DNA from: Planctomycetota bacterium
GTDB lineage: Bacteria > Planctomycetota > Phycisphaerae > UBA1845
NCBI GenBank assembly: GCA_024276605.1
Contig: JAJRWX010000033.1
Span: 19,541-83,540, forward strand
Reading direction: 5' to 3'
DNA: 64,000 nucleotides
The first letter of the stretch is position 1. Each line of letters begins with the position of its first letter. Position numbers and translations under genes: made by a program. Below are positions 24,098 through 64,000 of this stretch, piece after piece. The notes below the pieces were generated by a model. The model was not told where the DNA came from. It made no database searches and saw nothing but the letters and a program-made list of their open reading frames with translations.

Positions 24098-24134
24098 TAA
24101 CCTTGTCCACGGACGAGGGAGACCTCGCGTCAAC

Positions 24135-44313: not shown

Positions 44314-45132
44314 CTAAGCTGCACTGGAAGTCGGTGTCGCCGAACGTTTTTGATAACGGGTTAATCCCAAAATAGCCGCGCCGTAGGCTACCACGTGGGC
44401 GGGATGCTTGGGAAGGAATATTGACCCACCGAATTCCTGCCGACAGGCCTCGATCATGCCTTCCTGACGTACAACCCCACCGATGAAAACCACATCACTT
44501 TCAAAACCAACCATTCTTAGTTGGCTCAGTGCCCGTCCAGCCAGCGATTGATGCGCACCGCAAATGATATCAGCCACCGTTTTTCCTTCCGACACGTGGT
44601 TGATGATTTCCGACTCCGCCAGCACGGCACAAACGCTACTAATGGGCTGCGGGTTCTCAGCCGTCAAAGACAACTTACCGATTTCGTTAACATCGACTTC
44701 AAGATAACGGCAAATCCGTTCCAGAAATCCACCACTACCAGCCGCACACTTTTCGTTCGTCCGGAACGATTTTACTTTCCCGTTGTCTCGAAGCTCAACC
44801 GCACGCGTGCACTGCGCTCCCATATCCAACACATAGCGGGCTTGAGGAAACAGCGTAAACGCCCCACGGGCACCACACGTCAGATCCGTGATCTGAATAT
44901 CGCGCATATTCAGACTGTATCGCCCCAGGCCAGTAGAAGCGATGTAATCGACGTCACCGGTATCAATGCCCGCTTAATCACACGCCTGCTGAAGTGAGCT
45001 TTGTGCTACGGCGTCAAAGTTAGCCTGCGTTCGGGTGATACCGCGCCCAACCACTTCGCGTTGCTCGTTAATAATAACTGTTTTCGAAGCACCCGCACCA
45101 AGATCTATACCTGCTATATAAGCCACACTCAT
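44314..45132 (-). pseudogene. bzdP: Benzoyl-CoA reductase ATPase subunit (BzdP/BcrD-like) with in-frame TAA at codon 53
   Basis: From ATG 45132 (AGGAGG RBS): [17 protein letters not shown]...QQACD*AGID..STGLGRY..QITDLTCGARGA..DMGAQ..NEKCAAGSG. Stop at 44974-44976. Confidence 0.8.
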
Positions 45133-45248
45133 CTCCTCCTATGGCCGGCTTTCACGGCAACACTGATCCATTGGCCACCGTCATCGTAACCGATGGTTGT
45201 CATCTCCATGGCCTCGTCATACTGAAAGTATACGTATTCATTATTCAT
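45129..45248 (-). CDS. Small 39-aa ORF overlapping both neighbours
   Basis: [39 protein letters not shown]. Its start overlaps the upstream stop, and its TGA overlaps the next ATG (ATGA). Confidence 0.45.
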
Positions 45249-46077
45249 CAACCCAAACGGCAGGTTCCGTACCAACCGTCGCATCAGGTGAGCATTCTGC
45301 CATCACATGATCCATCGCGAACAGTGCCGCACCCAAGGCACCACAGAAATGCGCATCCGGGCTGATGTTAAGCGATTGTCCCAGCTTGGCTTCCAAGGCT
45401 CGAATCATGCCGATATTTCGGGCTACACCACCGGTAAATGTCATCTCCGGGTCAAGCCCTACGCGGCGTACCAAACCAATCGTCCGTGTAGCGATGGCTT
45501 CGTGTACACCAGCTAAGATATCTTCCACTTTCTTCTTTTGGGCAAGGTGGCTTAAAATGTCCGACTCAACGAACACCGTACACACGCTGGTCAGACGAAT
45601 CGGCTTGGTTCCTCTCAGAGAAATCTCACCAATTTCATCCAGCGTTAATCCAAGCACATCTGCCGCACCGGCAAGAAACCGCCCCGTTCCAGCTGCGCAT
45701 TTGTCGTTCATGCAAAAGTCGAGTACGTCGCCGTCGGAGCTGACTTTAATCGCCTTGGTGTCCTGTCCACCCATGTCAATCACGGTACGTGTGCCAGGAA
45801 AGAGCAGGTGTGCGCCACGGGCGTGGCAGGATATTTCCGTCACCTGCGTGTCACCCGCTTCGATTTTGTAACGACCGTAACCCGTACCCACGACAAACTT
45901 AATATCATCGCGCTGTATGCCAGCCTTGGCGACGAGTTCATCCAGCACACGTTGCCCCGCCCGCTTTACATTGGCGCCGGTATCGATCAAGAACCGCTCC
46001 ACAATACCACGAGAGCTGTCAATGACCACTGCCTTGGCCTGGGTACTTCCAACATCTATTCCGGCTGCATATTGCAT
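45241..46077 (-). CDS. bzdQ: Benzoyl-CoA reductase ATPase subunit (BzdQ/BcrA-like; ASKHA activase)
   Basis: [47 protein letters not shown]. Confidence 0.82.
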
Positions 46078-47390
46078 TATGTAGAACCTTTCATACCAGC
46101 GCCGCGTTTTCCCATCTCTACCTGTTCTCCTTTACGTAACCGTTTGTATTGGAGCGACTCAAAGAACGCATCGATGCGGTTCTTCATTTGGGCTTCGGCG
46201 TAATACCTTGGATCTTCGAGGTCGGACTCAACCATAAGCGTTGGCACGCCAAGCTCTTTGGTGAAATACTCCCGCATATCTCCCTGCCCCGCAGAAAAAA
46301 GTCGGCAGCTCTTTATACTGTGAATGACCAGCGCGTCGGCATTCCAGTCATCGACGTATGTTTTTATTTGTTTGTATCGCTCAATCATGGATCGATTGCA
46401 GAGATTGTGCACAATCATTTGCTCGGCGATGCTTTCGAGTGGATTGTCGGGGTCGTGCCGGAAACCAAATTCCCAAGTACCTCCGACGGTAGAATATGTA
46501 CTTTGTACAGCTACCGCCCCCCACGCCTCAAACAAGTTACGAAAGTTTCGATAGTACGGATAAGGCGGCGGACCTTCGAACACGACGCGAAATCGCTCCT
46601 CGTCCAAGACACCCATACCGTCAGCAATCATGTTTTCATATTCTTTGATCGTAGCGTCGAAGAAATCGGCGGCTTCTTTCGTTCCACGCAGGGCATTGAT
46701 AGGCCCCATCATGTTGATGCTGTCAAAATATGCATCAAACGGGGCAGGATGATTTTTACATAATTCCTTGGCTCGACTCCAACCCGCTTCGGCACGGACG
46801 GAATATTTCAGAATCTCTCTTAACTTGTCAATGTCAAACTTCTTGCCGGTCAGCTCTTCACACTTGGTGATAAGCTCCTTGAGTTGACATATGACATAGG
46901 CTACGTCTTCTTTAGTTGGCGCTTCTTCACGGAGGAAGGGAATGTCCAGCATGACCATCGGAACATTCAACATTTGAGAACAATGCTCAAACCACTTGAT
47001 GTACACGTTGCAACCGACAAAGTTGCACACAATCATCGATGGTTTTGGTATAGTGCCGTTCTCACCGACCCCACCACACATCGTAAACCCGATATCCGCC
47101 TTCACATAGGCACAGTTGTCAGATGCATAGCCAATCTCTTCGCTCTTGATAATATAAGGCAATGAGTTTTTGCGTATGGCAAGTTGCAGTGCATTGATCT
47201 CGGGAAACACCGGTAATATGTCGAAGCATCGCATGATCTCGACACAATTTCCGCTAATCATGAGATAGGCGGAAGGTACGGGATTTGTTGTGGCAGCCTT
47301 CAACTGCGACATCCAACCCGTCATGATATCGCGCGATAACTTATGTATTTTCCCGCGATAATCTTTTTCATCTGATACCGTCGTTCGCAT
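46077..47390 (-). CDS. bzdO: Benzoyl-CoA reductase subunit B (BzdO/BcrB-like)
   Basis: [64 protein letters not shown]. Confidence 0.82.
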
Positions 47391-47523
47391 TGTGCTTACT
47401 CCAAACCCTTCACCTTGTTAGACAACGTCGGCGGCGTGCCCGCCCAAACTCACCATTGTCAACAAAGCCTGGATTGATGTTGTCTCACTTTATTCCCATT
47501 CTTCTCTCGGCTATCCCGAATCA

Positions 47524-48678
47524 CTAATCAAACAACATAGATTCCGCGAACGTTTCTATCTCCGTGCGCGTACTTTCGAACGTCCACATTTTCTCTTCAA
47601 ATTCTATTTTTAGATGAGGCACATCTGCTTCTTCCAATTTTTGGCGAAACAACACATAGTCCAACAGGGCCGGCTCGCAGAATTTTGCCGGTGCAAAGAG
47701 GACGGCCTCAGCGCCGGAACGCTTCATCCGATCAATCAGCCCGTCAGTTCGCGGTTTTTTATAGTCATGTCGAACCGACGTATAGACACTGCTCGCTAAG
47801 TATGCGTTGGACAGCGCTGCCAGCGGATCGCCATTTGAAACCACATCATCATCGAAAAGGCGCCAACCAATGATCATATCGTCGTCTTGCACCAGACAAC
47901 CGCTGGCTTCGATGACCTCGACCAATCCGATCGGCGGCTGTTCGCAAAAAGCACCCTCCACAACTACCCGCACCCCGTCTCGCGGTTTGACATCCGAAGC
48001 CTCAACAGCATCGCAAAGCTCACGCAGCATGGGCACAAAATCCTCCGGCATCATGCGCGTACTTGCCTGCACCACAGCGTACAAATCCGCAGCGGCAATC
48101 GACGAAGGATGAGCTTTTCGATGAGCATAGAGACGTCGGGTGTGGTGGCGCACTTCATTGTAAAGTTTAAGGCTGTCTCGAATCGCCTCGTCGGGAATAG
48201 GTCGATTCAATTGTTTCGATAGATTGGTACGAAAGCGTTCAAATTCCGATCGCGCGTAGTTAGCCGATTCCGCGCTGTACATGTTCTGCGGCATATGAAG
48301 ATATTCGACGTAAAGCTCGGGGCAATTACGCTTGACCAAACTCGAAAGATTGCGCGCGACATCGCAAATGGAACTGAACACGACCCCCTCGAATTCCTTC
48401 ATTTCATCACGAAGAAACAGCTCAAGGGTGCTCTTGGCTATGGAACAAATGAAAGACTGAAACCGCGCATCCGCGTGAGACAACTCAATCTTGTCTCCCG
48501 CACCGAACATCCCAACCGGAAGCAGCCCGGCTGCGTGGATAATCTCTACCGGCGCATAAACCGGAAAAACCCCAAAACCCCCTACATCGGGATGTTTCTC
48601 CCTCGCCAGTGCAAGAATCTGAGCCGGTAGTAGGTCGAGTAGATCACGACATTCCTGAATGATTTTTTCGCCAGTCAC
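47524..48678 (-). CDS. bzdN: Benzoyl-CoA reductase subunit C (BzdN/BcrC-like)
   Basis: PVYAPVEIIHAAG, FQSFICSI, SICDVARNL, GAFCEQPP, KFCEPALLD, ETFAES. GTG start with GGAGG RBS. Confidence 0.85.
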   Translation of the reverse strand: MTGEKIIQECRDLLDLLPAQILALAREKHPDVGGFGVFPVYAPVEIIHAAGLLPVGMFGAGDKIELSHADARFQSFICSIAKSTLELFLRDEMKEFEGVVFSSICDVARNLSSLVKRNCPELYVEYLHMPQNMYSAESANYARSEFERFRTNLSKQLNRPIPDEAIRDSLKLYNEVRHHTRRLYAHRKAHPSSIAAADLYAVVQASTRMMPEDFVPMLRELCDAVEASDVKPRDGVRVVVEGAFCEQPPIGLVEVIEASGCLVQDDDMIIGWRLFDDDVVSNGDPLAALSNAYLASSVYTSVRHDYKKPRTDGLIDRMKRSGAEAVLFAPAKFCEPALLDYVLFRQKLEEADVPHLKIEFEEKMWTFESTRTEIETFAESMLFD

Positions 48679-48719
48679 ACAAACCTCCAATACGATGTCG
48701 ATGCACTCACCGAATTCGT

Positions 48720-51212
48720 TTACGAATTCGCCGAGGCTCCATCCAACTCTTGTTCTCCAGAAAATTCCGCCATCCCGTTCTCGGACGGGTAACGCCAACC
48801 CGGTAGCTCAACTTGATCGCACGAGTAATTCATGGCGGGAGGACGCTTCCCTCGATCGAGCAGTGCAAGCAACCCAACACTGATGAACGGATTCTTTTTC
48901 GGGTTGAAAATTTCCCCGGTTTCAGTAGCTAATGCCGCATCGTTTGCACCGCGCGCCAGTTCTTTTTTGAACAGTGCCCTTGAATAAGGCGCATCCTTAG
49001 CCATCTGTCGGGCGCGCTCGAATCCACGCTGCAACGCTTCCAACTCGTTATCAAAAACGCCGTTACAAAGCCCAACCTGAAAAGCACGATCAGCGGTAAG
49101 CCCCTGATCGAACAATTCGAAGATCACTGAGTCACCCATACCCAACCGTTTCAACTCACCAGCCGCCCCAAACCCGGGCAAAATCGCATAATCCAATTCC
49201 GGTTGGTTGTAGTTACACTTCAGGCCCCACTGCGATTGTCTCTTGAGCGAATCAAACGTGAAGCCAAACGACCGAATGTCGTAGCGTAGATCAAGAAAGT
49301 ATGTGAACTCCGCCCCTCCGCCCCATTTTTCACCAAAGACGCCGATACTGGCTACCGGACTCTGCTGAATCAACCGGAATAGCCCAACACCGTTACGACT
49401 TGACGCCGCCGCTTCGGATTCACTCAATGGCGCATAACCCTTGTCGCGCTCAAACCAACCTCGATTGAATTCACGGGCATCGGCACCGAACATTCTCAAA
49501 CCGGTGCCGGCTGCGGTAAACAACACGGCACCGCACGCGCCTTTCGCATGAAGCTTTAGAACACGGCTATAAGCATGACCAAGCTGATCGATGACTGCCT
49601 TGTTAAAGACATTACCCCGCAACGGACTGTTAAAAATAATGCTTGCGACGCGCCCCTTAGTCGATGGTTCGCCAAATTTAAGATCGAGATAACAACCTCG
49701 GTAATCGCCCGAATCGAGACAAAGCTCGGCGACCGGCGTTCGATAATACTTGCCGTATCCAAGTAAGCGCGAAAGATTTCTTCGCTTCATTTCCAAAAGT
49801 AAGCAGGGACGGTTGATGCGCGGTCCGGTCGTTCCGTCTACATCCAACATGTCAACCATATAGGGATCGTCGGCGTTTTCATCTTGGGCACGTCGAACCA
49901 ATTGGATGAGTCCATCAATGGTTAAGCTGCCAATGAGCGCGTCGATCAACTCGATCAATCCCACTTTGAACCTTAACCCGGCCCGCGTAGCTATGTTAAT
50001 CTGCCCCGGCGTGGCAATTCGATCTTGAATCATATCGAGCGCATACAAACACAATGGCAAGGCATACCGACGAAAAGCTCGACCACCGGCGTCACTCGCA
50101 CAGGCCACATGAACCAACGACGCTGTGCTTTTAATCTTTCCGGCTAGACGATCCTTTTCCGTCGCTTCGTAATAGGACCAGTAATCCTTGCGTGAAATTT
50201 CCCCCATGGGCACATAATCACCCGACTTGGGATCGTACACAGCCGAAGGCTTGGACTTACTCCAAGCATAAAAACCCCGACGCTTGGATGAATTGATTCC
50301 CGTATCCCCACTAATCTCCAGCCGTGCTATCCATTCCGGATAGTAGGCACCATCGCGGTTGTATAGGCCACGTAACCGATCAGTGGCAGGAAGCGCTTCC
50401 CCGAGATGACGAGACGATTCCGTGTACGGCATGTGCCCGGTTTGATCGAGCACGACAAACGGGTTAGCCGTGAACAAATCCCAAAGACCGCCCCGCTCGA
50501 CGATATCTTGCGGACCATCCACATCCCACGAGACGATAGCCCCCATAGCCTGAAACAAGGGATCAGTAATGTAACCGTGATGATCGACCGGCAACGAGAT
50601 GACTGTTTTCTCTAGAATCTGATCCGCAAAAACCGTGCCAATCTTAAATGTCTCGTTCGATGCGTACTTTCCCTTCATGACATCAATCAGGCGGTTGGAT
50701 TCGAACGGAAAGTAACCGTGTACGGTAAGAAATTTCTCGCGAAAGGCCCCGGATGCAAATAAAGCGGCGAGTTCTTCCGTGGTGTGTGAGGATGTATTCG
50801 AAAATATCGCGGCGATGCTAACCGGATCAACCGCTTCTTCGATCAATCGAAAGATGCTCGCTTTTATTTCACTTCGTTCCGTAGCTACTTCCCATATAAT
50901 ATCGGCACGGCTGAGGGCATCATATTCCTGCGTATAGGTTACGCGCGAGGACAGGCGTTCTCGATCCTCTTCTCGTAAACGAAACGCCGACACATCTCGC
51001 TTCCATAAACCTTCAAATCGATCGCGCGCCGCTTGAAGTGCTTCTTGCTTGACATCCAGCAACAATATCTCGTAAGGTGACTTTCGCAGTAAATCAATGA
51101 CGATTCCCTGCCCCATCGTACCGGCGCCGATGATAGCCACACATTGTATCTCATTGACACGCGAGACTGCAGCTTCCAGAGACTTGTCGCCGTATGCAAA
51201 TGCGCAATTCAT
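48720..51212 (-). CDS. 3-hydroxyacyl-CoA dehydrogenase / crotonase-like fusion (divergent, dehydrogenase first)
   Basis: IIGAGTMGQG, WEVATE..IK, SNTSS; C-terminal crotonase fold (GNVFN, GADARE, WGGGAE, QPE..ILPGFGA). Confidence 0.8.
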   Translation of the reverse strand: MNCAFAYGDKSLEAAVSRVNEIQCVAIIGAGTMGQGIVIDLLRKSPYEILLLDVKQEALQAARDRFEGLWKRDVSAFRLREEDRERLSSRVTYTQEYDALSRADIIWEVATERSEIKASIFRLIEEAVDPVSIAAIFSNTSSHTTEELAALFASGAFREKFLTVHGYFPFESNRLIDVMKGKYASNETFKIGTVFADQILEKTVISLPVDHHGYITDPLFQAMGAIVSWDVDGPQDIVERGGLWDLFTANPFVVLDQTGHMPYTESSRHLGEALPATDRLRGLYNRDGAYYPEWIARLEISGDTGINSSKRRGFYAWSKSKPSAVYDPKSGDYVPMGEISRKDYWSYYEATEKDRLAGKIKSTASLVHVACASDAGGRAFRRYALPLCLYALDMIQDRIATPGQINIATRAGLRFKVGLIELIDALIGSLTIDGLIQLVRRAQDENADDPYMVDMLDVDGTTGPRINRPCLLLEMKRRNLSRLLGYGKYYRTPVAELCLDSGDYRGCYLDLKFGEPSTKGRVASIIFNSPLRGNVFNKAVIDQLGHAYSRVLKLHAKGACGAVLFTAAGTGLRMFGADAREFNRGWFERDKGYAPLSESEAAASSRNGVGLFRLIQQSPVASIGVFGEKWGGGAEFTYFLDLRYDIRSFGFTFDSLKRQSQWGLKCNYNQPELDYAILPGFGAAGELKRLGMGDSVIFELFDQGLTADRAFQVGLCNGVFDNELEALQRGFERARQMAKDAPYSRALFKKELARGANDAALATETGEIFNPKKNPFISVGLLALLDRGKRPPAMNYSCDQVELPGWRYPSENGMAEFSGEQELDGASANS

Positions 51213-51240
51213 GACAATCTTCCGTTACCAAAGATAGAAT

Positions 51241-52488
51241 TCATTTCGTTTCCGTATTTCGTATAACAATGGCTACGCCCTGCCCGCCGCCAATGCATGC
51301 GGAGCAAATACCATACGCCACACTACGTCGCTTCATTTCGTACATCATGTCAACGATGATCCGAACACCCGTCGCGGCCAGGGGATGACCAATCGCAATG
51401 GCCCCACCGTTCACATTCACATTTTCGCGCGGCAAACCCAGCTCTTTTTCAACGCCCAGGTATTGAGCGGCAAAGGCCTCATTGATTTCCCATAGTCCGA
51501 CATCTTGTTGACTGATCCCGGCGCGTTGGAGCGCTAGATTGATCGAAGGCACCGGCCCGCGGCCCATCACCCGAGGGTCAACACCGCAAACACCATAACT
51601 CACTACCTCGAACTGTGTTGACCACCCGTTTCGCTCTGCTTCTGCTCGATCAGCCAGAATCACCGCGCCAGCGCCGTCACTTAGTTCGCTCGCATTCCCG
51701 GCTGAGACTAATCCGTTCGGTGTCATGCCTGGTATCTTGGCAAGCACTTCGAGGGAAGTGTTTCGAACACACTCATCACGAGCTAGATGCACCGGTTCAC
51801 CGCGCAAGTCCGTCGCATCGATCGCCAACATACCGCAAAGGGCGTCACCACCGTTGAAATGGCTGGATCGGTAAGCGTCCCGTGCGCGCTGGTGGGATTG
51901 TACGGCAAACTCATCGCATGCATTGCGAGTGACGCCGACCTGACTCCCATATTCATCAGCCGTTAACATCATGCTAGTATGTGCCAGATCATGATTCAGC
52001 CCGGCAAGCAGCGTATCTTCTTTTTTGCCACCTTCTTGAAATTCCCAAAAACTGGAGGCACGACGAGGCGAGCGAATGACCTGGGGCGTTCGTGTCATGT
52101 TCTCGGCACCAAAACACAAGGCCGTCTTGGCATCATCCATTTCCGATGGCACAGCGATTTGCTGCATCGCACTGACAACCGTTTGCAGTCCCGAACCGCA
52201 AATGCGTTGCACCATGAGCGCCGGAACGTCCACGTTCAAGTGACAGCGTAATGCCACATTTCTGGGAAAATAAATATCCTGCGATGCCGGTGCCGTGGTT
52301 TGATACACATTGGCACCAATAGCCGTATCTATTTGTTCGCGAGGTACACCGCTTCGTTTGATCGCCTCTTCACACGCGAAGAAGGCCAAATCTTCAGGCG
52401 CAAAATTAGACAGCGTACCACACTTTACGCCAATCGGCGTTCGTGCCCCATCCACAATCACGATATCGGAATGCTCGTTACGTGCCAC
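51241..52488 (-). CDS. Acetyl-CoA acyltransferase (thiolase)
   Basis: GARTPIG, RICGSG, GNAS..SDGA, EINEAFA, NGGAIAIGHP, CIGGGQG. Confidence 0.95.
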   Translation of the reverse strand: MARNEHSDIVIVDGARTPIGVKCGTLSNFAPEDLAFFACEEAIKRSGVPREQIDTAIGANVYQTTAPASQDIYFPRNVALRCHLNVDVPALMVQRICGSGLQTVVSAMQQIAVPSEMDDAKTALCFGAENMTRTPQVIRSPRRASSFWEFQEGGKKEDTLLAGLNHDLAHTSMMLTADEYGSQVGVTRNACDEFAVQSHQRARDAYRSSHFNGGDALCGMLAIDATDLRGEPVHLARDECVRNTSLEVLAKIPGMTPNGLVSAGNASELSDGAGAVILADRAEAERNGWSTQFEVVSYGVCGVDPRVMGRGPVPSINLALQRAGISQQDVGLWEINEAFAAQYLGVEKELGLPRENVNVNGGAIAIGHPLAATGVRIIVDMMYEMKRRSVAYGICSACIGGGQGVAIVIRNTETK

Positions 52489-52491
52489 AAC

Positions 52492-56701: not shown

Positions 56702-57939
56702 CGTTGCAGCTCCTCGATTTGCTCTATAAAGGCCTCAATGTTCGTCATGGTCTGTGCGGTGGAAAAAAATCGTACATCGCTGAGATCACCGTCGATCACA
56801 AGAACAGGGATGGATAGCTCTTCGCGCAGTCGTTCACTCATGCCAAAACGAGAATTTGTATTGTTGGGGCATGTTCGAGCGTTGTGAAAAATCACACCGT
56901 CAATAGCGAACTTATCGAACATCTCGATTAGAAACCGTTGCTTAACCGGCTCGTCTCGGTTGATGAAAATCTCAATGCTTGTACGCGCCATCCACTCAAG
57001 CGGATCGTCGCCGTCAAACTCATCGAAGGCCCAAGAGTTACAGTATGTACTGGCGGCCACGATCGCGCGCAGATCGTAGAATTTTTCAGATAGTTCTCGC
57101 AGTTTCGGCCAAATCGGCATCCCTTCCCAATAGATACGATGAAGTTCATCCGGCACGGCGCCTGTGCCTTTTTCTACTCGGCGGTTCAGTTCATTCAACA
57201 GTGTTTCATAGTAATCGATCGCCTTTTGCGTCCCGCGCATGAGAATCACGGGGGCCATGTGTATGACACCATCGAAGAACGATAGCGCAGCCGGGTGAGC
57301 CGTTGCCGTATCCAACACCTGTCGCCATAAAGTGCTGGCCCGGCTCGATAACGTAACAACTTCACGAAGACGATCGTAGTCCAGTTTTAGCGAAAATTGC
57401 TGCTCAATCCGTTCGATCAATTGCTCAAGCTGCCCGCGCACAAAGGCCACCTGCTCGGGCGTCACTTCACCCAGATGGGTCGGGGGACACACGCCCATGA
57501 CGGGAGCGCCGTCACGCTGACCGTAAAAACTCCACCAATCCTGCACCTCCCGACATTGGTTGGTGCTATAGACCAGCAAATCAGGCTTGGGCGGACCGGC
57601 AATACCGAATACATCCTGTAGCGGACTATGCCCCATTAGTGTCGAACCTATGTCGCTATTCATGTACGAACAGGACTCAGCTCCGTATCCAATGCTGACT
57701 GCCCGTGGGATGAACTCATGACTGAGCCGACGCGCGCCAAGAAGCGCGCCATGATTTTCCGGAAAATAGACCTCAAAGCCCATAGCCGAGAGAATTTCGC
57801 ACGGACCGACCGACGTACACCAAGCCACCTTCCGCTGTGAATCTCGCGCAGCGGCATCGAGGCTTAAGAATTGGTCGCGCATGAGTTCGCTCAGTTCGCG
57901 ACGCGACTCAATCTCAACTCGTTTGATCGTCGTAGCCAT
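56698..57939 (-). CDS. 2-hydroxyacyl-CoA dehydratase-family Fe-S subunit (HgdA/FldB-like)
   Basis: VAWCTS, FPENHGA, CSY..SDIG, NQC, HNARTC, IDGDL.D.R..TNIEAF. Confidence 0.88.
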   Translation of the reverse strand: MATTIKRVEIESRRELSELMRDQFLSLDAAARDSQRKVAWCTSVGPCEILSAMGFEVYFPENHGALLGARRLSHEFIPRAVSIGYGAESCSYMNSDIGSTLMGHSPLQDVFGIAGPPKPDLLVYSTNQCREVQDWWSFYGQRDGAPVMGVCPPTHLGEVTPEQVAFVRGQLEQLIERIEQQFSLKLDYDRLREVVTLSSRASTLWRQVLDTATAHPAALSFFDGVIHMAPVILMRGTQKAIDYYETLLNELNRRVEKGTGAVPDELHRIYWEGMPIWPKLRELSEKFYDLRAIVAASTYCNSWAFDEFDGDDPLEWMARTSIEIFINRDEPVKQRFLIEMFDKFAIDGVIFHNARTCPNNTNSRFGMSERLREELSIPVLVIDGDLSDVRFFSTAQTMTNIEAFIEQIEELQR

Positions 57940-57951
57940 ACGTCCTCTTCC

Positions 57952-58977
57952 TTACGGCACAACTATGGACCGAAGCGACACGCCCTCTTTCATCACGGCA
58001 AAGGCTTGTTCTAATTCGTCCAGTGCAAATCGATGCGTCACTTGACGCTTTACGTCAATCACACCGGACTCCACCATCCGAATCAACGGTTTGTAATCGA
58101 GCGGACGACACCCGAGTGAACCAACCACTTCGATCTCTTTGAACATAATTTTTCCGGCCACGATCGATATCTTTTCATGCGTATAACCAACCACGCACAA
58201 TCGACCGCCCATACGTACGCACTCGAATGCCTCTTCAATGGTTCGCGGATTCCCGATGACTTCCATGGCGATATCCGCCCCACCACCCGTCAACTTTTTT
58301 ACCTCTTTGCTTACGCGCTCAACCTTGGAAGCGTTGATGGTGTGTACGGCGCCGTATTCCCGCGCCCATTCGAGCTTTTTCTCATTCATATCGACAGCGA
58401 TAACGCAGCCGCCGCTCGCCGTGGCTAACTGCACGGCGTTAATACCCACGCCGCCGCATCCAAAAACAACCACCGTATCACCGGGTCTCACCTTGGCGCG
58501 ATTCTTGACCGCGTGATAGGGCGTGGAGATCGCGTCGGCGATAATCGACGCTTCCTGGAGAGGGATGGACTCCGGAAGATGAAGAACATCTTTCGCCGGT
58601 ACAGCTACATACTCAGCGTAAGCCCCGTCAAAGTGATTCCCCAGCATGGTCATGCTGCTGCAAATGTTCTCTCGCCCCATACGACAGAACATACATTTTC
58701 CGCACGTGAGCACCGCCGGGATCAAGACGCGTTGCCCTTTGGCAAAGTCTTCAACTCGATCTCCAACCTGATCCACGATTCCCGACGCCTCATGCCCGAG
58801 CACAATCGGAGGCTTCTTAAACGTGGGCACGCCGTGCTCGATATAATGCAAATCCGTATGACAGACCCCGCACGCGGCCACTTTCACGAGCATGTCATCG
58901 GGGCCGATCTTGGGGATCGGTATATCTTCGACGCTCAATCCAGTGTCGCTACCGTGAAATACTACTGCTTTCATCAC
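57952..58977 (-). CDS. had: Zn-dependent dehydrogenase, probable 6-hydroxycyclohex-1-ene-1-carbonyl-CoA dehydrogenase
   Basis: CGVCHTDLHY..GVPT..PIVLGHE, IPAV..CGKC..C..C, ADAISTPY; operon context with dch, oah and the reductase. Confidence 0.8.
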   Translation of the reverse strand: MMKAVVFHGSDTGLSVEDIPIPKIGPDDMLVKVAACGVCHTDLHYIEHGVPTFKKPPIVLGHEASGIVDQVGDRVEDFAKGQRVLIPAVLTCGKCMFCRMGRENICSSMTMLGNHFDGAYAEYVAVPAKDVLHLPESIPLQEASIIADAISTPYHAVKNRAKVRPGDTVVVFGCGGVGINAVQLATASGGCVIAVDMNEKKLEWAREYGAVHTINASKVERVSKEVKKLTGGGADIAMEVIGNPRTIEEAFECVRMGGRLCVVGYTHEKISIVAGKIMFKEIEVVGSLGCRPLDYKPLIRMVESGVIDVKRQVTHRFALDELEQAFAVMKEGVSLRSIVVP

Positions 58978-59017
58978 TAACTATCCTCTTGTGCCATTGA
59001 TTGATTGCCACCTGTGC

Positions 59018-59788
59018 CTACGCATGTTGCCAGGCCGGCTTTCGCTTCTCCAAAAACGCTGCGATGCCCTCATGCGCATCCGCGATAGCCATTAGCTCGC
59101 CCAGATAAAGGGCTTCGGTTTTATCCAACTGATTGAGCATCTGTTCACGTACGGCCATACACGTGGCACGTTTCGCCATGCGCACAATCGGACACGACAG
59201 TTTCTTGATACCCTCCAGATAATCATGCACGCTTTGATCAAACGTATCGGTTGGGTAAACGGCGTTGACCATGCCAATGCGATGAGCTTCCTTGGCATCG
59301 ATGGTTTGCCCCAATGCGTTGAACTCAATCGCTTTCTTGATCCCTATCTGCATAGGCAACACACAAGCCGCCACCGGTGGAAATACACCCACCTGCACCT
59401 CCGGCTGACCGAACTTGGCCCGTTCGGATGCCAATACGATGTCACAATAACAGGCTAATTCACATCCCCCACCCAGCGCCGCACCTTGAACAGCTGCGAT
59501 GGTCAGAGCATCGGTCGAAGCCAGCTTTCTGAAGATGCCGTGGAACTGATGAATCATGTCGCCTACTTGATCGGCGGAGTGGTCGCTTACATCCACACCT
59601 GCGCTAAACACCTTTCCGCTTGCACCGATCACAATGGCTGATAGTTCATCTCCCGAAAGAATAGATTCCAGCAGCGCGTTGAACTCTGCCATCATGGGAT
59701 TATGCAACACGTTGAGCGGTTCACGGTTCATCGTGATCCGTGCAATACGTTCGTCGATGTTCAGATCAAAATAACGGTAATCACTCAT
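59018..59788 (-). CDS. dch: Enoyl-CoA hydratase, probable cyclohexa-1,5-diene-1-carbonyl-CoA hydratase
   Basis: PLNVL, FSAGVDVSDH, LGGGCELA, GQPEVQVGVFPP, EALYLGELM..DAHEGIAAF. Start at MSDYRYF. Confidence 0.82.
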   Translation of the reverse strand: MSDYRYFDLNIDERIARITMNREPLNVLHNPMMAEFNALLESILSGDELSAIVIGASGKVFSAGVDVSDHSADQVGDMIHQFHGIFRKLASTDALTIAAVQGAALGGGCELACYCDIVLASERAKFGQPEVQVGVFPPVAACVLPMQIGIKKAIEFNALGQTIDAKEAHRIGMVNAVYPTDTFDQSVHDYLEGIKKLSCPIVRMAKRATCMAVREQMLNQLDKTEALYLGELMAIADAHEGIAAFLEKRKPAWQHA

Positions 59789-59801
59789 AGTCACGTAACC
59801 C

Positions 59802-60542
59802 TCAGATGTACTGTCCACCATCCACGCGAAGCACTTCGCCGGTGATGAAACGAGCGCGGTCGCTACACAAAAAAACCACCGATTCACCAACATCCTCAAC
59901 CGTGCCGATTCGACCGAGCAGAATCTCGCCGACCGCATCGCGCTTAGCATCCTCCGACATGGTCTTGACGATATCCGTTTCGATAAAACCCGGCGCGACG
60001 GCATTGACGGTGATGTTGAATCGGGCCACTTCCTTCGCTAACGTCTTGGTCAGTCCAATCACACCCGCCTTGGCTGCGGCATAATTAGCCTGTCCAAACT
60101 TACCCCGCATCCCGTTGATGCTAGCCATGTTGACGATGGCCCCGCCGCCGGACTGACGCAGATAGGGAATCGTAGCACGACACACGTTAAACACGCCGGT
60201 TAAATTGACATCGATAACATCTTGCCACATATCATCAGTCATTTTCCAGCTTACTTGATCGCGTACGATGCCGGCATTATTGACGATAACATCAAGCCCA
60301 TCCCAACGACCAGCGACCGATTCGAGCGCATCGCCTACAGCACGAGCATCGCGCACATCGCCAACGACTTGGCAGCATTGACGATCAAGTGATTCGATTT
60401 GACGAACGAAGTCTGAGCTGCCGGAGAAATCCTCCTGATCGAAGATACAGACATCATATCCATCACGCGCGAGCATCTGTACAATGCACCGGCCTATGCC
60501 TCGACCGCCGCCGGTTACAAACGCTCGTCGCCTGTCTGACAT
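59802..60542 (-). CDS. SDR oxidoreductase (FabG/PhaB-like)
   Basis: TGGGRGIG, NNAG, YAAAK, NAVAPG. Confidence 0.92.
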   Translation of the reverse strand: MSDRRRAFVTGGGRGIGRCIVQMLARDGYDVCIFDQEDFSGSSDFVRQIESLDRQCCQVVGDVRDARAVGDALESVAGRWDGLDVIVNNAGIVRDQVSWKMTDDMWQDVIDVNLTGVFNVCRATIPYLRQSGGGAIVNMASINGMRGKFGQANYAAAKAGVIGLTKTLAKEVARFNITVNAVAPGFIETDIVKTMSEDAKRDAVGEILLGRIGTVEDVGESVVFLCSDRARFITGEVLRVDGGQYI

Positions 60543-60560
60543 GCCCGGTTTCCTCTCCCG

Positions 60561-61697
60561 CTACGTCGCCACCGCCGCTTTCAATGCCGCTCCACACTTT
60601 CCGCAGAACTCGAAGTTGCGTGGAATCCCCTTCGCACCGCACTCCTGACAAGTTTGTGCGTAAGGCCCCCACAAAAACTCACTCGATCCGTCCGGATCAG
60701 CCGCCCGCTCACGCATACCGACGTAGTCCGCCTTACGTTTTTCAACGAAGGCCGTCATTCCTTCGTGAGGCTCAAGACTGGTATAATGCACGGATAACCA
60801 ATCACGCGCATGCCCCACCGTCGAATGCCAAGCCGCATCCTTCCAGAAGTTGACCTGTGTCTTGGTGTAACGCGTGCATTCTGCAAATTTGTGAACGATC
60901 TGATCACAAAGATCGGACATCACTTCGTCCATACGTGAAAAGTCTATGGAGAATCCGTCCTGTTTCTTCTGCGCTTTCTTGATCTGCTCCGGCGTCGCAC
61001 GCATGTCAAAAGGTTGCTCCCATGGATCGGTATTCCAATCTGCCAGATATGTTCGACCGTTCGTGAACTGAGTGACGAACGCGCCGCCTGAATCCTTTAC
61101 AGTAGGCACAACGACATTGACCAACCCCATCGAAAGCGAAGTAAATGGACCGTATCGTTGATTGAGAAACAAGATACCGCGTGCCTTACGATCGCCGACG
61201 TGCAAGGGAAGCCATTGGGTCGAACCACCACAGGCTACCGAACCAACGCCGGTACCCACTTGCGCGATAAATGCGTGTTCACCCATCACGGAAAGATCGC
61301 AGGCCAACTGGCTTTCGTTCCCTCCGCCGACAGCCATCCCGTTCAAACGAGCAATGACAGGTTTCGAGCAATTCGTGATCGACTCAATATACGCCTTGAA
61401 GCAAGACATGTACTTCCAATAGTCGCGCGGCTTTTGCGTGTAGGACTCCTGGTATTCCTTCACATCTCCGCCCGTGCAAAAAGCACGGTCGCCGGTGCCG
61501 GTAAACACAACGACAGCAATGCGATCATCCCAGGAAGCATCCTGTAAAGCCGCGGCAAGCTCCGTGAGCGCAGGTGTGCTGTAGGCGTTGTAGTTGTGGG
61601 GACGGTCGATCGCTATGTGTGCGACCCACCCCTTCTTCTCGTAGCGAACCTCGTGCAAATCCAGCGACTCAGGCCGCTTCTGCGGGAACATGGACAT
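60561..61697 (-). CDS. oah: Crotonase-family ring hydrolase, probable 6-oxocyclohex-1-ene-1-carbonyl-CoA hydrolase, with C-terminal Zn ribbon
   Basis: YNAYST, AFCTGGDVKEY, KPVIARLNGMAVGGG, GS..GGST, KFAEC..TK..W; tail CQECG..FCGKCG. Confidence 0.8.
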   Translation of the reverse strand: MSMFPQKRPESLDLHEVRYEKKGWVAHIAIDRPHNYNAYSTPALTELAAALQDASWDDRIAVVVFTGTGDRAFCTGGDVKEYQESYTQKPRDYWKYMSCFKAYIESITNCSKPVIARLNGMAVGGGNESQLACDLSVMGEHAFIAQVGTGVGSVACGGSTQWLPLHVGDRKARGILFLNQRYGPFTSLSMGLVNVVVPTVKDSGGAFVTQFTNGRTYLADWNTDPWEQPFDMRATPEQIKKAQKKQDGFSIDFSRMDEVMSDLCDQIVHKFAECTRYTKTQVNFWKDAAWHSTVGHARDWLSVHYTSLEPHEGMTAFVEKRKADYVGMRERAADPDGSSEFLWGPYAQTCQECGAKGIPRNFEFCGKCGAALKAAVAT

Positions 61698-61733
61698 CTC
61701 GGGGCCTCCTTACTGACCAGTAGATGTATACTA

Positions 61734-61749
61734 GAACGAACGTTCGTTC
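61734..61749. promoter_or_regulatory. Perfect 16-bp palindrome, candidate TetR operator
   Basis: GAACGAAC|GTTCGTTC lies about 37 nt upstream of oah, between the operon and the divergent tetR gene. Confidence 0.7.
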
Positions 61750-61818
61750 GACAATATCAACAAAAAGCTCAAGCAGCTTAAACCATAATCAGCTACCTAA
61801 TCTATATCAATATATATA

Positions 61819-61846
61819 ATTATCGTCCTAAAATCTAGTGTGTCAA
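61819..61846 (-). promoter_or_regulatory. Candidate sigma-70 promoter for the catabolic operon
   Basis: Minus strand TTGACA-N16-GATAAT. Confidence 0.5.
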
Positions 61847-61890
61847 GTACATTATTGTACATTATTTGAGCCGTTTACGTGTATTTATGC

Positions 61891-61919
61891 TTGACAGGAT
61901 CACAGGGATGGACGATACT
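61891..61919 (+). promoter_or_regulatory. Candidate sigma-70 promoter for tetR
   Basis: TTGACA-N17-GATACT. Confidence 0.6.
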
Positions 61920-61969
61920 TAAATACACTGTCTTCTGTTCGTTTATTTGAGTTAGGCTGCGTATCTAAT

Positions 61970-62638
61970 ATGAGCGTTTCCGAACAATCGTTCGAAGCCG
62001 AGGCTACCCCGTCGCCGCCCGCCGTAACTTTCGAGGGACGCGGCACTTACGACGAAAGGCTAAATCAAATCCTCGCCGCAGCAACAGCCACATTCGCCCG
62101 GCTGGGCTATGAAAAAGCGTCCATGAGAGAGGTGGCCAAGGCCGCAGGGGTGAGCTTGGCTGGTTTGTACCACTATTTTGATGGCAAAGAAAAAATCCTA
62201 TTTTTGATCCAATTCCGTGCCTTCGGTTCTCTACAGAATAATCTAAGGGAAAAACTTCACGGCATTGATGATCCTGAATTGCAATTGCGAGCCATGATTC
62301 GCGCCCATCTCACCTACTTTGCGGCGAACATGGAGGCACTGAAAGTCTGTTCGCACGAATTGGATTCCTTAACCGGTTCCGCCTACAGCGAAACGCGACA
62401 AATTCGTCATGCCTACTACGAAATCACACGCGGCATCATTGAACGATTGATCCATACACACAACACGAACGGCAACATTGACTTACATGTCGCAACAATG
62501 GCACTCTTCGGCACGCTTAACTGGCTATATCGTTGGTATGACCCTCAACGAGGTCCGGCCGTCACAACCGTGGCTAACCAGATTGCCGATCAGTGTTTGC
62601 ACGGTTTGATTGGAACGACGAAAACCGGGGACCAATAA
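61970..62638 (+). CDS. TetR/AcrR-family regulator (KstR2/PaaR-like, CoA-ester sensing type)
   Basis: ILAAA..FARLGYEKASMREVAKAAGVSLAGLYHYF..KE; FGTLNWLYRWY. Confidence 0.93.
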   Translation: MSVSEQSFEAEATPSPPAVTFEGRGTYDERLNQILAAATATFARLGYEKASMREVAKAAGVSLAGLYHYFDGKEKILFLIQFRAFGSLQNNLREKLHGIDDPELQLRAMIRAHLTYFAANMEALKVCSHELDSLTGSAYSETRQIRHAYYEITRGIIERLIHTHNTNGNIDLHVATMALFGTLNWLYRWYDPQRGPAVTTVANQIADQCLHGLIGTTKTGDQ

Positions 62639-62721
62639 CTGTCACAGGTAGCTATTAACATAAATACGAATGTAACGACGGTATTGTTCGTAGTCGAACC
62701 CGTCGTTTGAGAGAATCGAAT

Positions 62722-63603
62722 ATGTATATTCCTTCCGTCAATTTTCATCGAACACGATCGCTTGCCGAGGCATCCGTACTACTGGAGTTCTACGGCTCCC
62801 AAAGCCGGATACTTGCCGGTGGTACTGACCTGCTCGTAGACCTTAAAGCGAAGCGAATTTCAACCGACCACCTCATCTCCATCAACCACATAGCATCACT
62901 CAAAACAATCACGGAAGAAAACGACGCGCTACGCATCGGCGCATTAACCACGATAACACAACTGGATGAATCTCAGCTTGTGCGTGATCGTTTTCCTTCC
63001 ATTGTAGACGCCACGCGCGTCATGGCTGTCCGACAGGTGCGCAACTTAGCCACCGTAGGCGGAAATATCGCCAGCGCAGTCCCTTGTGCTGATCTGCCCC
63101 CCATCCTCACGGCACTCAATGGATCAGTCGTGCTCTGGTCAAACAAAGGTGAGCGCATCGTGCCATTACGTAATTTCTTTTTGGGGCCTCGACGTACCGA
63201 CATTCACGAAGCGGAAATTCTCTCGGGCGTCATCATTCCAAACAGTGGTAGAAACTTTGGAGCTGCTTATGCCCGGTTCGGACTGCGCGAAGGTAACGCC
63301 ATCGCAGTAGCCGCCGTAGCTGCTTCGTTGACGCTATCCGCAAACGGAACCATTAACAGCGCTTGCATCACGCTCGGCGCCGTCGCCCCGATACCCAAAG
63401 TCGTCGAAGAAGCATCGAATGTGCTGTGCGGAGAAAAGCCAAGCGATGCCCTCTTCGCCAAAGCTGCCGACGCCACAGTCGCCGCTGCCGATCCGATTTC
63501 AGACGTTCGAGGTTCAGCCGCATATCGTCGTGAATTGGTCGCGGTATTAGCTCAACGGGCGTTATCAAAAGCATTACAACGAGCCGAGGAGGACGCCCAA
63601 TGA
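62722..63603 (+). CDS. Xanthine dehydrogenase family FAD-binding subunit (CoxM/CutM-like)
   Basis: LAGGTDL, IGALTT, VRNLATVGGN, ADLPP, PISDVRGSAAYR. Confidence 0.93.
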   Translation: MYIPSVNFHRTRSLAEASVLLEFYGSQSRILAGGTDLLVDLKAKRISTDHLISINHIASLKTITEENDALRIGALTTITQLDESQLVRDRFPSIVDATRVMAVRQVRNLATVGGNIASAVPCADLPPILTALNGSVVLWSNKGERIVPLRNFFLGPRRTDIHEAEILSGVIIPNSGRNFGAAYARFGLREGNAIAVAAVAASLTLSANGTINSACITLGAVAPIPKVVEEASNVLCGEKPSDALFAKAADATVAAADPISDVRGSAAYRRELVAVLAQRALSKALQRAEEDAQ

Positions 63604-64000
63604 GTGAGATCATCACATTTTGTGTAAACGGTGAACATCACACGAAACTCGTAGAGCCTCACGACACACTCGTAGACGTCCTGCGAGATGGTATGCGATT
63701 GACGGGAACCAAAAAAGGTTGCAGTGTCGGCGATTGCGGGGTGTGCACGGTGCTCATTGAGGGGCAGCCGGTCAACAGTTGCCTCGTGTTGGCTGCCGAT
63801 GTTGGCCATCAAGCCATCACGACCATTGAAGGACTAGCCACAAACTCAGAGCTAACTCCCATCCAAAAGGCTTTTGTCCACGAAGGCGGCGTTCAATGCG
63901 GATTTTGCACGCCGGGCATGGTACTCTCCGCTACCGCTCTGCTGGACAAGAACGCCACACCTACAACCGAAGAAATCAAGGACGCACTAGCCGGCAATCT
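63600..64000 (+). CDS. Xanthine dehydrogenase family 2x[2Fe-2S] subunit (partial)
   Basis: Manual translation: MSEII..LTGTKKGCSVGDCGVCTV..SCL..QCGFCTPG..LAGN. ATGA overlap with the FAD subunit stop. Confidence 0.93.
   Translation, partial: MSEIITFCVNGEHHTKLVEPHDTLVDVLRDGMRLTGTKKGCSVGDCGVCTVLIEGQPVNSCLVLAADVGHQAITTIEGLATNSELTPIQKAFVHEGGVQCGFCTPGMVLSATALLDKNATPTTEEIKDALAGN

Follow-up and report, generated by a model that had tools for sequence, protein, structure and literature searches.

A probable operon for anaerobic aromatic-acid degradation via benzoyl-CoA in an uncultured marine bacterium of the class Phycisphaerae

Benzoyl-CoA is dearomatised by reductases of two classes, of which the ATP-dependent class I enzymes are attributed to facultative anaerobes and the class II enzymes to strict anaerobes in the available text of PMC11971306. 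The described systems closest to the locus analysed here are the four-subunit BcrCBAD (BadDEFG) reductase of Thauera aromatica and Rhodopseudomonas palustris, the 3-methylbenzoyl-CoA reductase (MBR) MbdONQP, the class II enzyme BamB-I of Geobacter metallireducens, the molybdenum (Mo) enzyme HcrABC of T. aromatica and the clostridial HadBC dehydratase with its activator HadI. The Phycisphaerae, a common group in anoxic marine sediments, are as a rule portrayed as degraders of polysaccharides. Here, we analyse a 64,000-nt stretch of one Phycisphaerae contig (JAJRWX010000033.1, positions 19,541–83,540, referred to as the window; G000:C10:19541-83540 in our numbering, in which G000 is the window genome and other genomes bear G numbers of the same form). 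A 13-gene run on the minus strand of the window, from 61697 to 44314, probably constitutes a TetR-controlled operon for the anaerobic degradation of aromatic acids via benzoyl-CoA or 4-hydroxybenzoyl-CoA. The host is an uncultured marine member of the Phycisphaerae, represented by a 4.5-Mb metagenome bin of 110 contigs that is 96% complete.

In transcription order, the run encodes an oah-like crotonase, a short-chain dehydrogenase (SDR), dch-like and had-like enzymes, a stand-alone HGD-D family subunit (HGDa), an activase, a ligase fusion, a thiolase, a 3-hydroxyacyl-CoA dehydrogenase/enoyl-CoA hydratase fusion (hadh), and the BcrC-, BcrB-, BcrA- and BcrD-like subunits of a ring reductase. This layout follows from the listing of open reading frames (ORFs) together with Pfam and NCBIfam searches, and it contains, on the minus strand between 44314 and 61697, all genes named for the cluster in an original prediction that was made from the DNA letters alone. 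Intergenic spacing within the operon ranges from −17 to 133 nt when bcrC is started at a GTG codon, and an overlap of −79 nt in the ORF listing vanishes with this proposed start. The arrangement is collinear in at least eight other genomes, which bears out the synteny across metagenome-assembled genomes (MAGs) that the original prediction had put forward as a check, and is therefore not a product of chance. The same prediction called the cluster an island and spoke of a non-canonical composition; the GC content, however, stays at 0.47–0.53 from one end of the window to the other, does not shift at the cluster and gives no support to an island in the sense of foreign DNA. A Phycisphaerae origin, which had been considered probable, agrees with the named homologues of the B subunit at 79–84% identity, which come from Phycisphaerae or Planctomycetota MAGs. 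The JGI annotation of these homologues already reads ‘benzoyl-CoA reductase subunit B’. Publications retrieved for Phycisphaerae and benzoyl-CoA reductase, in the portions available, do not assign the enzyme to this class, and those retrieved for Planctomycetota and benzoyl-CoA, in the same sense, place pathway genes in archaea, Acidobacteriota, Binatota, Methylomirabilota and others without mentioning this locus. The gene family is thus already annotated, and the operon, its added genes and the reductase exchange outlined below are undescribed in the available portions of the literature searched, supplementary tables of surveys excepted.

The ring reductase and its exchange among relatives

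Four adjacent genes at 44314–48798 match PF06050 twice and PF01869 twice, that is, two HGD-D subunits beside two BcrAD-type ATPases, in agreement with the four-subunit class I reductase that had been predicted; the D gene is interrupted by a TAA codon. The BcrB-like, putatively catalytic subunit (46077–47390, minus strand), assigned from NCBIfam, PDB and tree to a class I aroyl-CoA reductase here called type 1, scores 328 bits against the BcrB model TIGR02260 (cut-off 486.55), compared with 202.3 for HadB and 121.1 for BzdO. Against PDB chains, its scores are 298.1 bits for MbdO, 164.8 for HadB and 104.5 for BzdO. The BcrC-like subunit (47524–48678, minus strand; probable GTG start at 48678 behind GGAGG, in an ORF open to 48798) behaves in the same way, with 292.1 bits for TIGR02263 (cut-off 421.15) versus 193.8 for HadC, and with PDB scores of 243.3 for MbdN, 160.6 for HadC and 90.7 for BzdN; all five of its aligned cysteines are common to MbdN and three of the five to HadC. 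The BcrA-like ATPase subunit (45241–46077, minus strand) is a short form of 278 aa that matches PF01869 at 222.3 bits, TIGR00241 at 269 bits and TIGR02259 at 199.4 bits (cut-off 578), and the 197-aa part of the D subunit matches TIGR02261 at 134.4 bits (cut-off 312.85).

The catalytic [4Fe-4S] cluster of BzdO is held by three cysteines, as given in the available text of PMC11971306. In a HMMER alignment, Cys93 and Cys362 of the window B subunit fall on BzdO Cys95 and Cys380, and Cys127 lies one column off Cys128; HadB has the same three cluster cysteines, so this feature does not separate a reductase from a dehydratase. No histidine was found in window B at the place aligned with His131 of BzdO, beside the second cluster cysteine, and the low scores for BzdO, BzdN and TIGR03191 (121.1 bits versus a cut-off of 448.6) place the enzyme outside the Bzd type. 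Nor is window B an orthologue of MbdO, which it matches at 298.1 bits compared with 568.8 for the protein at the same locus in G002, the two lying in separate clades. These clades were obtained from a maximum-likelihood tree of 28 alpha-type subunits (15 type 1, three MBR-type orthologues, seven HGDa, and one each from Fusobacterium, Proteus and Azoarcus KH32C), for which four over-long ORF calls were trimmed and in which the row T1_G041 is poorly filled. Type 1 and the MBR type form one group at 100/99, to which neither HGDa (a clade of its own at 100/100) nor the dehydratase-like references belong; the MBR-type orthologues represent the reductases in this tree, which holds no Thauera BcrB and does not address a sister relation of type 1 to the Bcr type proper. 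Both the bit scores and the tree hence group B and C with aroyl-CoA reductases rather than with amino-acid-fermentation dehydratases; clustering with such dehydratases is what the original prediction had named as a refutation.

A scan of one genome per species identified 564 stretches that encode relatives. The best 80 of the 564, at 54–86% identity, are all metagenome bins, assigned to Phycisphaerae/Planctomycetota, Rokubacteria/Methylomirabilota, Acidobacteriota, a few Elusimicrobia, WOR-3 and others, and the absence of any cultured degrader among these 80 genome matches speaks against a known degrader lineage. A search for the named Thauera BcrB in a plasmid collection returned only matches of at most 30% identity, and the control genomes contain no degrader. 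By sequence, B and C are of the aroyl-CoA reductase type, in a clade that has no cultured or characterised member among those seen. In two Methylomirabilota/Rokubacteria loci (L102:16820-21050 and L104:17224-21530), about 4 kb without a match to any window protein separates bcrB from bcrA.

Relatives were compared by tblastn of all window proteins against their loci. Collinearity is full in G017, including the divergent TetR and Mo-enzyme genes, and in G023, where TetR stands at the end of the stretch examined; it extends to the contig limits in G009 and G010 and is also found in G041 and G042, Planctomycetota genomes from other studies. G002 (same genus as G000), G014 and G022 have orthologues of the accessory genes at 60–80% identity, but their C and B subunits are only 39–41% identical, and the G002 B subunit reaches 568.8 bits against MbdO; on these matches, an MBR-type reductase occupies the slot in all three. 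In G019 (96% complete), the slot after hadh holds a 667-aa protein that matches Geobacter BamB (4z3w_A) over its full length at 997.8 bits, followed by a small Fe-S protein and HdrD-like and HdrA-like proteins, a set that, as far as homology goes, is the signature of a class II reductase. No BcrB-type gene was found in G019 and no BamB copy in G000. Among the 41 genomes compared, type 1 is present in seven (G000, G007, G008, G009, G010, G017 and G023), the 39–42% type in four (G002, G014, G021 and G022) and a BamB orthologue in G019 only, four other matches being AOR-family proteins of 30–38% identity. In 301 genomes sampled evenly across the phylum, the ligase fusion occurs in three, namely G000 and two members of another family and class; both of the latter have BamB orthologues (65–67% identity), which in G133 lies on the fusion’s contig. 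The Acidobacteriota and Methylomirabilota/Rokubacteria loci share only TetR, CB, AD and a dch-like gene or SDR. Because three unrelated or distantly related dearomatising enzymes are exchanged within a conserved operon, the job of the slot would be ring reduction of benzoyl-CoA, which argues strongly that it holds a dearomatising benzoyl-CoA reductase. With BamB in the same slot in G019, the window reductase and BamB would therefore be functionally interchangeable. The rule that assigns class I to facultative and class II to strict anaerobes is blurred where both fill one slot in closely related genomes. G023 (L010:2743-3843), G019 (L111:16662-17756) and G024 (L113:7969-9075) carry an extra thiolase-like gene between SDR and dch, 32–33% identical to the operon thiolase and absent from the window.

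The bcrD gene was given as a 197-aa ORF in the original prediction, which missed an in-frame stop: the gene spans 272 codons (45132–44314, minus strand), from an ATG at 45132 behind a ribosome-binding site (AGGAGG, 45140–45135), and is interrupted by TAA at 44976–44974, codon 53. Four orthologues have E or Q at this codon, and a whole-genome Pfam search returned a PF01869 match with ‘1 TAA’ inside bcrD. TAA also terminates had, hadh, bcrB and bcrA and is therefore a true stop in this organism. Genome-wide, ORF pairs in the same frame are separated by TAA in 168 cases, TAG in 117 and TGA in 104, against 1014, 904 and 912 ORF-end stops; this is at most a mild excess of TAA, in a count that also takes in adjacent genes sharing a frame. 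Among public reads, parts of the stretch are present in four DNA runs, all from a single marine metagenome study, and in no RNA run. The Logan contig over the TAA site (214 nt, 44832–45045, depth 3.7) has three unlocated differences and neither confirms nor refutes the TAA. The codon is either a lesion, in which case this population would have an inactive reductase, or an assembly error, in which case the gene was misread. Another interrupted gene of the bin lies beyond the window at G000:C10:90419-92308 (L016:7419-9308), where a butyryl-CoA:acetate CoA-transferase-like gene is split by an in-frame TAG into 302 and 324 aa, the second ORF including an acetyltransferase-like part.

Ring opening, the molybdenum enzyme and control of the operon

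The genes for the steps after ring reduction head the operon. The oah-like ring-hydrolysing crotonase (60561–61697, minus strand, as are all genes of this paragraph) has TIGR03200 as its top match (210 bits, cut-off 464.45; BadI 158.6) and carries a C-terminal CxxC...CxxC tail (CQEC...CGKC), whose matches to Pfam zinc ribbons stay below cut-offs. It is followed by a FabG-like SDR (59802–60542; PF13561 209.7 bits, NF009466 269.6 bits), a dch-like enoyl-CoA hydratase/crotonase (59018–59788, starting with ATG at 59788; top match TIGR03189, 170.9 bits, cut-off 292.5) and a had-like Zn-dependent alcohol dehydrogenase (57952–58977; top match TIGR03201, 253.1 bits, cut-off 338.65). The equivalog cut-offs are not reached by dch, had or oah, yet the pathway model is the top match for each of the three proteins. 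Further downstream lie the thiolase (51241–52488; TIGR01930 339.1 bits, above the cut-off of 240.55) and the 830-aa 3-hydroxyacyl-CoA dehydrogenase/enoyl-CoA hydratase fusion (48720–51212; PF02737 at 107.9 bits over residues 25–206, PF00378 over residues 519–761).

As the original prediction had noted, a TetR gene and Mo-hydroxylase genes lie opposite the operon, on the plus strand. The first Mo-enzyme gene (62707–63603) encodes a CoxM/XdhB-like FAD subunit of 298 aa (NF043083 203.6 bits versus 101.4 for the HcrB model), which in the PDB matches CutM at 148.1 bits and 1rm6_B at 52.5 bits, the latter over residues 12–128 only. The second begins at 63600 and runs 2539 nt past the window end (C10:83140-86079); it encodes a 979-aa HcrA-like protein in which a 2Fe-2S and a Mo subunit are fused. 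The Mo subunit matches TIGR03194, the 4-hydroxybenzoyl-CoA reductase alpha model, at 892.5 bits (cut-off 994.55) versus 601.8 for XdhA, and Thauera HcrA (1rm6_A) at 537.7 bits versus 334.2 for the next PDB entry. The enzyme is conserved beside TetR in G017, G002, G041, G042, G019 and G024. Downstream of it are a HemN-like radical SAM gene, an XdhC-type maturation factor and a MocA cytidylyltransferase. The HemN-like gene (L016:3060-4415, beyond the window) shares 20 nt with the 3′ end of the HcrA-like gene; in G041 and G042, tblastn gave no match to it behind the Mo gene.

The TetR-family regulator (61970–62638, plus strand; PF00440 and PF17932), correctly anticipated in the original prediction, is found at the same place in relatives at 55–78% identity. 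In the spacer between it and the operon, an inverted repeat at 61727–61756, with the core GAACGAACGTTCGTTC at 61734–61749, is a candidate TetR operator: it occurs once in the window, and a CGAACGnACGTTCGnTCG-like motif is present in the same spacer of 6/6 genomes aligned. The exact core GAACGAACGTTCGTTC was found in none of 114 loci searched, and the degenerate motif alone is conserved. Divergent promoter-like sites lie within 61819–61919, one on the minus strand (61846–61819, 11/12 of the consensus) and one on the plus strand (61891–61919, 10/12), and their TTGACA boxes are conserved in the alignment. Since a promoter scan returned 12 sites in the region where 16.6 are expected, the argument rests on position and conservation, not on the scan.

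Taken as a pathway, these genes give, by comparison, good support to the following course. The HcrA-like Mo enzyme would remove a 4-hydroxyl group before ring reduction; the ATP-driven, BcrCBAD-like class I reductase would dearomatise benzoyl-CoA; the dch-, had- and oah-like enzymes would hydrate, oxidise and hydrolytically open the ring; and the hadh fusion with the thiolase would shorten the ring-opened product, the divergent promoter pair and the conserved palindrome CGAACGnACGTTCGnTCG presumably controlling the operon. The likely role is degradation of 4-hydroxylated or side-chain-bearing aromatic acids, a substrate range read from the gene content. The original prediction had suggested a substituted aromatic or an aryl-alkanoate, and this suggestion gains support from the HcrA-like Mo enzyme and the beta-oxidation genes while the compound itself is still an inference.

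The rest of the window consists of ordinary genes, such as those for SAM synthetase, MurJ, aspartate kinase and a Ser/Thr kinase. A protoglobin-coupled histidine kinase directly before a sigma-54 response-regulator activator (9602–12203) may form a gas- or redox-sensing pair. A 1277-aa ORF at 18167–22000 has no Pfam match at E 1e-6, and the same holds for ORFs at 22573–25127, 33564–35333 and 7049–8290. On the minus strand at 8372–9476, overlapping ORFs of 238 aa (CBS domains) and 157 aa (no match) may be one frameshifted gene. Immediately downstream of the operon, 42104–44119 encodes a 671-aa protein with weak matches to DUF748, TIGR03545 and TIGR03546, all below cut-offs.

HGDa, its activase and the three-part fusion

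Between the ring-opening genes and the thiolase, the operon carries three genes that might prepare substrates for the pathway. HGDa (56698–57939, minus strand) is an alpha-type HGD-D subunit that scores 191.7 bits against the HadB model (cut-off 750, not reached), ahead of BcrB (144) and a double-cubane model (67.2), and in the PDB matches HadB at 153.8 bits versus 103.3 for MbdO. Three of its seven cysteines align with cluster ligands. The activase (55883–56701, minus strand) is an HgdC/HadI-type ATPase that matches TIGR00241 at 235.5 bits, above the cut-off of 125.4. The HGDa and activase genes overlap by 4 nt, and the start and stop codons of activase and fusion overlap as well. The original prediction of an extra dehydratase/activase pair holds in that an HGD-type subunit accompanied by an activase is present, and fails in that there is one subunit instead of an alpha/beta dehydratase: G000 contains three HGD-D genes (BcrC-like, BcrB-like and HGDa) and G019 only one (HGDa), and a beta partner was found in neither G000 nor G019.

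A structure prediction with two copies of HGDa scored 0.71, compared with 0.00 for the best control; three runs agree in all contacts, the partner pLDDT is at least 91, and the interface adjoins the cluster cysteines. Among solved structures, 20 of 30 pairs of one chain and 1 of 23 single chains attain that mark. HGDa is thus a predicted homodimer, on a model whose pass may merely mirror its likeness to the solved HadBC, BzdNO and DCCP dimers. HGDa and the activase are retained whichever ring reductase a genome has, both lying behind the Mo genes in G019 and G024, and are missing from the Acidobacteriota and Methylomirabilota/Rokubacteria loci. At least 120 homologues of HGDa have 69% identity or more, and among the matches listed all names given are those of Planctomycetota/Phycisphaerae MAGs, with a generic family annotation.

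The ligase fusion of the original prediction is a 1135-aa protein (52492–55899, minus strand) that, in addition to the ligase, comprises a reductase-like part and a DUF2889 part. Its N-domain (residues 1–392, 54724–55899) resembles ketopantoate reductases and D-mandelate dehydrogenase in its structure model. It has no Pfam match even at E 10, ApbA and ApbA_C included; 279 relatives were found at E ≤0.001 among 1.84 billion representatives, many of them stand-alone proteins of 385–400 aa and 25–32% identity. A model built from 24 relatives (pLDDT 94.1) predicts a two-domain fold, Rossmann plus helical. In Foldseek, D-mandelate dehydrogenase and PanE/ApbA reductases head the PDB matches (E 2.4e-12 and weaker, TMt 0.59–0.80), and an Atlas search likewise points to D-mandelate dehydrogenase and ketopantoate reductases. 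The domain has a conserved EFDKAxVNLxxN motif with an invariant K, which may be the equivalent of the catalytic Lys of ketopantoate reductase. The C-terminal acyl-CoA synthetase domain (residues 571–1135, 52492–54189) matches PF00501 at 261 bits and NF009232 at 271.2 bits (cut-off 777).

The DUF2889 domain (residues 393–570, 54190–54723; PF11136 50.6 bits) has invariant D29, H32, C62, C95 and C147 and a nearly invariant H97 in 30 sequences, and a model of pLDDT 89.9. Foldseek against the PDB gave nothing at E ≤0.001, IscU entries appearing at E 0.1–0.3, and in a wide VIA-align search the top Z was 8.1, with IscU (7.2) tied with RnfG/NqrC and with flavoprotein domains, within the tool’s noise. 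In the 41 relatives, the domain occurs only within this fusion, in 12 genomes of one family; homologues are present in 33 plasmid or chromid records, mostly of aerobic Burkholderia, Cupriavidus and Variovorax. Stand-alone proteobacterial DUF2889 genes lie in acyl-CoA clusters in four of five neighbourhoods, one of the four containing HGD genes. The prevalence of aerobes among the homologues, and the presence of HGD genes in only that one neighbourhood, weaken the case for DUF2889 as an electron carrier linked to HGD-family enzymes. On plasmid pAZKH of Azoarcus sp. KH32C (L110:3109-12547), the surroundings of a stand-alone DUF2889 gene include two HGD-D genes and an activase, together with genes for a CaiB-type CoA-transferase, two acyl-CoA dehydrogenases, an SDR and a TetR regulator. 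This uncharacterised HGD-family cluster of a cultured denitrifier could serve as a model system.

Clostridial Fld/Hgd-type operons combine a 2-oxo-acid reductase, CoA activation, a dehydratase and its activator. The translationally coupled HGDa, activase, fusion and thiolase would reproduce these functions, and arylpyruvate or aryl-lactate could therefore yield cinnamoyl- or p-coumaroyl-CoA. In such a feeding module, the N-domain would convert an aromatic 2-oxo acid into its 2-hydroxy counterpart, the ligase would make the CoA ester of the latter, HGDa, as a single-subunit ketyl-radical enzyme, would dehydrate the 2-hydroxyacyl-CoA to the enoyl-CoA, and side-chain beta-oxidation would give benzoyl- or 4-hydroxybenzoyl-CoA plus acetyl-CoA. 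For example, arylpyruvate or aryl-lactate might pass through cinnamoyl- or p-coumaroyl-CoA to benzoyl- or 4-hydroxybenzoyl-CoA, in keeping with the aryl-alkanoate or substituted aromatic of the original prediction. Joint action of all four components in this manner is a tentative proposal, which we regard as doubtful in its exact wording.

Alternative readings and comparison with described systems

Several observations weigh against the benzoyl-CoA pathway as we read it. All pathway-specific NCBIfam matches are below the equivalog cut-offs (for example BcrB 328 versus 486.55 and oah 210 versus 464.45), and the substrates may therefore differ from benzoyl-CoA. The bcrD gene carries an in-frame TAA in an operon where TAA is the normal stop. 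As the original prediction had remarked, neither a ferredoxin gene nor a benzoate-CoA ligase is encoded in the operon, and the whole genome has no member of the benzoate-CoA ligase family above the cut-off (best 221.6 versus 375.25). No glutaryl-CoA dehydrogenase can be named in the genome (best 341.4 versus 470), and none of five acyl-CoA dehydrogenases elsewhere in it exceeds a specific cut-off. An inserted [4Fe-4S] loop is typical of the FAD subunit of Thauera HcrB, and the FAD subunit of the window has no such extra loop, its only three cysteines being unclustered. For the feeding module, the difficulties are of a similar kind: in G019 and G024, HGDa follows the Mo genes instead of lying beside the fusion; to our knowledge, known 2-hydroxyacyl-CoA dehydratases are alpha/beta heterodimers, whereas no beta partner accompanies HGDa; none of the characterised relatives of the ligase domain is informative, with no PDB relative above 122.3 bits; and DUF2889 is unexplained, with no clear fold match.

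One rival is that the true substrate of the type 1 reductase, and the compound that the operon serves, is not benzoyl-CoA itself but another aroyl-CoA, either substituted (methyl-, hydroxy- or halobenzoyl-CoA) or of a different kind, such as a bicyclic ester that is already partly reduced. Each of the four subunits stays far under its BcrCBAD equivalog cut-off, and the clade is separate from the MBR type at about 40% identity and known here only from uncultured lineages; yet the slot of relatives holds a BamB orthologue (997.8 bits) or an MBR-type enzyme while the ring-opening genes stay orthologous, and the HcrA-like enzyme would supply plain benzoyl-CoA, so that we rate a different substrate as rather improbable. 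A Stickland-type operon without ring reduction, in which the BcrCB-like proteins and HGDa are all amino-acid-fermentation dehydratases, might be read from the Pfam assignment of all three to HGD-D and from HadB and HadC as second-best matches. It is hardly credible next to the bit scores and the tree, which put B and C with the reductases, the two ATPase subunits beside CB as in four-subunit reductases, the replacement of CBAD by BamB in G019, and the dch-, had-, oah- and HcrA-like genes, which have no role in Stickland fermentation. The pathway may, in turn, be of the proposed kind and dead in this organism, with the bcrD TAA as a real nonsense mutation in a decaying operon. A true stop at a codon that reads E or Q in four relatives fits such decay, and no BamB-type substitute was found in G000; the other 12 genes, however, are all open and conserved, the source is a 110-contig metagenome bin, and the sole public contig over the site has a depth of 3.7 and three unlocated differences. 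Decay is a reading to be kept in mind, though less probable than an intact pathway.

HGDa and the activase could, instead of a dehydratase, form a second ATP-driven reductase, such as a reductive dehydroxylase or another low-potential step alongside the Mo enzyme. Homodimeric double-cubane reductases (the double-cubane protein DCCP is described in the available text of PMC11971306) likewise lack a beta subunit, HGDa is kept with every type of ring reductase, and in G019 and G024 it stands directly behind the Mo-enzyme genes. The HadB score (191.7 bits) nevertheless beats those of BcrB (144) and the double-cubane model (67.2), and seven cysteines, three of them aligned with the cluster, are too few for a double cubane; a second reductase seems unlikely. 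For the fusion, a simpler rival is that its ligase activates phenylpropanoids or benzoate. Returning to the aromatic-acid pathway with its feeding module, the broadest claim would be that one Phycisphaerae family possesses an exchangeable dearomatisation cassette (type 1, MBR-type or BamB), fed from aromatic 2-oxo or 2-hydroxy acids by a homodimeric ketyl-radical enzyme and the fusion. We hold this claim, taken as a whole, to be a long shot. If it is true, these acids would come from phenylalanine, tyrosine or lignin-type phenylpropanoids, and Stickland-type chemistry would be joined to the benzoyl-CoA pathway in abundant sediment planctomycetes. An operon for complete anaerobic aromatic-acid oxidation would give the Phycisphaerae a role in the turnover of lignin- and amino-acid-derived aromatics. 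The interest of the locus lies in its interchangeable reductases, in the tri-domain fusion, and in three tractable unknowns: a reductase clade that has no characterised member, an HGD enzyme that has an activase to itself but no beta subunit, and DUF2889, which recurs in acyl-CoA clusters.

Among described systems, the clostridial HadBC and HadI (PDB 3o3m) resemble the HGDa part of the operon, in that HGDa is nearest to HadB, an activase is adjacent, and a 2-oxo-acid-reductase-like domain and a CoA-activating enzyme are nearby. In contrast to the clostridial systems, the window has no beta subunit for HGDa, its CoA activation would be carried out by an AMP-forming ligase instead of a CoA-transferase, and its reductase is of the predicted ketopantoate-reductase fold and joined to the ligase through DUF2889. 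HcrA of Thauera aromatica HcrABC (PDB 1rm6) is the best match of the window Mo subunit by a wide margin; unlike HcrABC, the window Mo subunit is below the equivalog cut-off and fused to the 2Fe-2S subunit, and its FAD subunit is CoxM/XdhB-like, with three cysteines and a 1rm6_B match of 52.5 bits. BamB-I of Geobacter metallireducens (class II, PDB 4z3w) has its counterpart in the same slot in G019 and on the fusion’s contig in G133; it differs from the window reductase as an unrelated tungsten enzyme that does not use ATP.

The reductase itself shares with BcrCBAD (BadDEFG) of Thauera aromatica and Rhodopseudomonas palustris the four-subunit layout in the order C-B-A-D, the best matches of B and C to TIGR02260 and TIGR02263, and the presence of dch-, had- and oah-like genes in one operon. 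It differs from that system in scores below the equivalog cut-offs, in a short A subunit (278 aa), in an operon without a ferredoxin gene, and in the confinement of the type 1 clade, among the best 80 matches, to uncultured Phycisphaerae, Methylomirabilota/Rokubacteria, Acidobacteriota and a few others. MbdO and MbdN of the 3-methylbenzoyl-CoA reductase MbdONQP (PDB 9g87) are the best solved relatives of window B and C, though window B is only 41% identical to the true MBR-type B of G002, from the same genus. The mbd cluster of Azoarcus sp. CIB is reportedly regulated by a TetR-type protein, MbdR, which offers a precedent for TetR control of such clusters, and a TetR-type regulator is likewise encoded beside the operon of the window.

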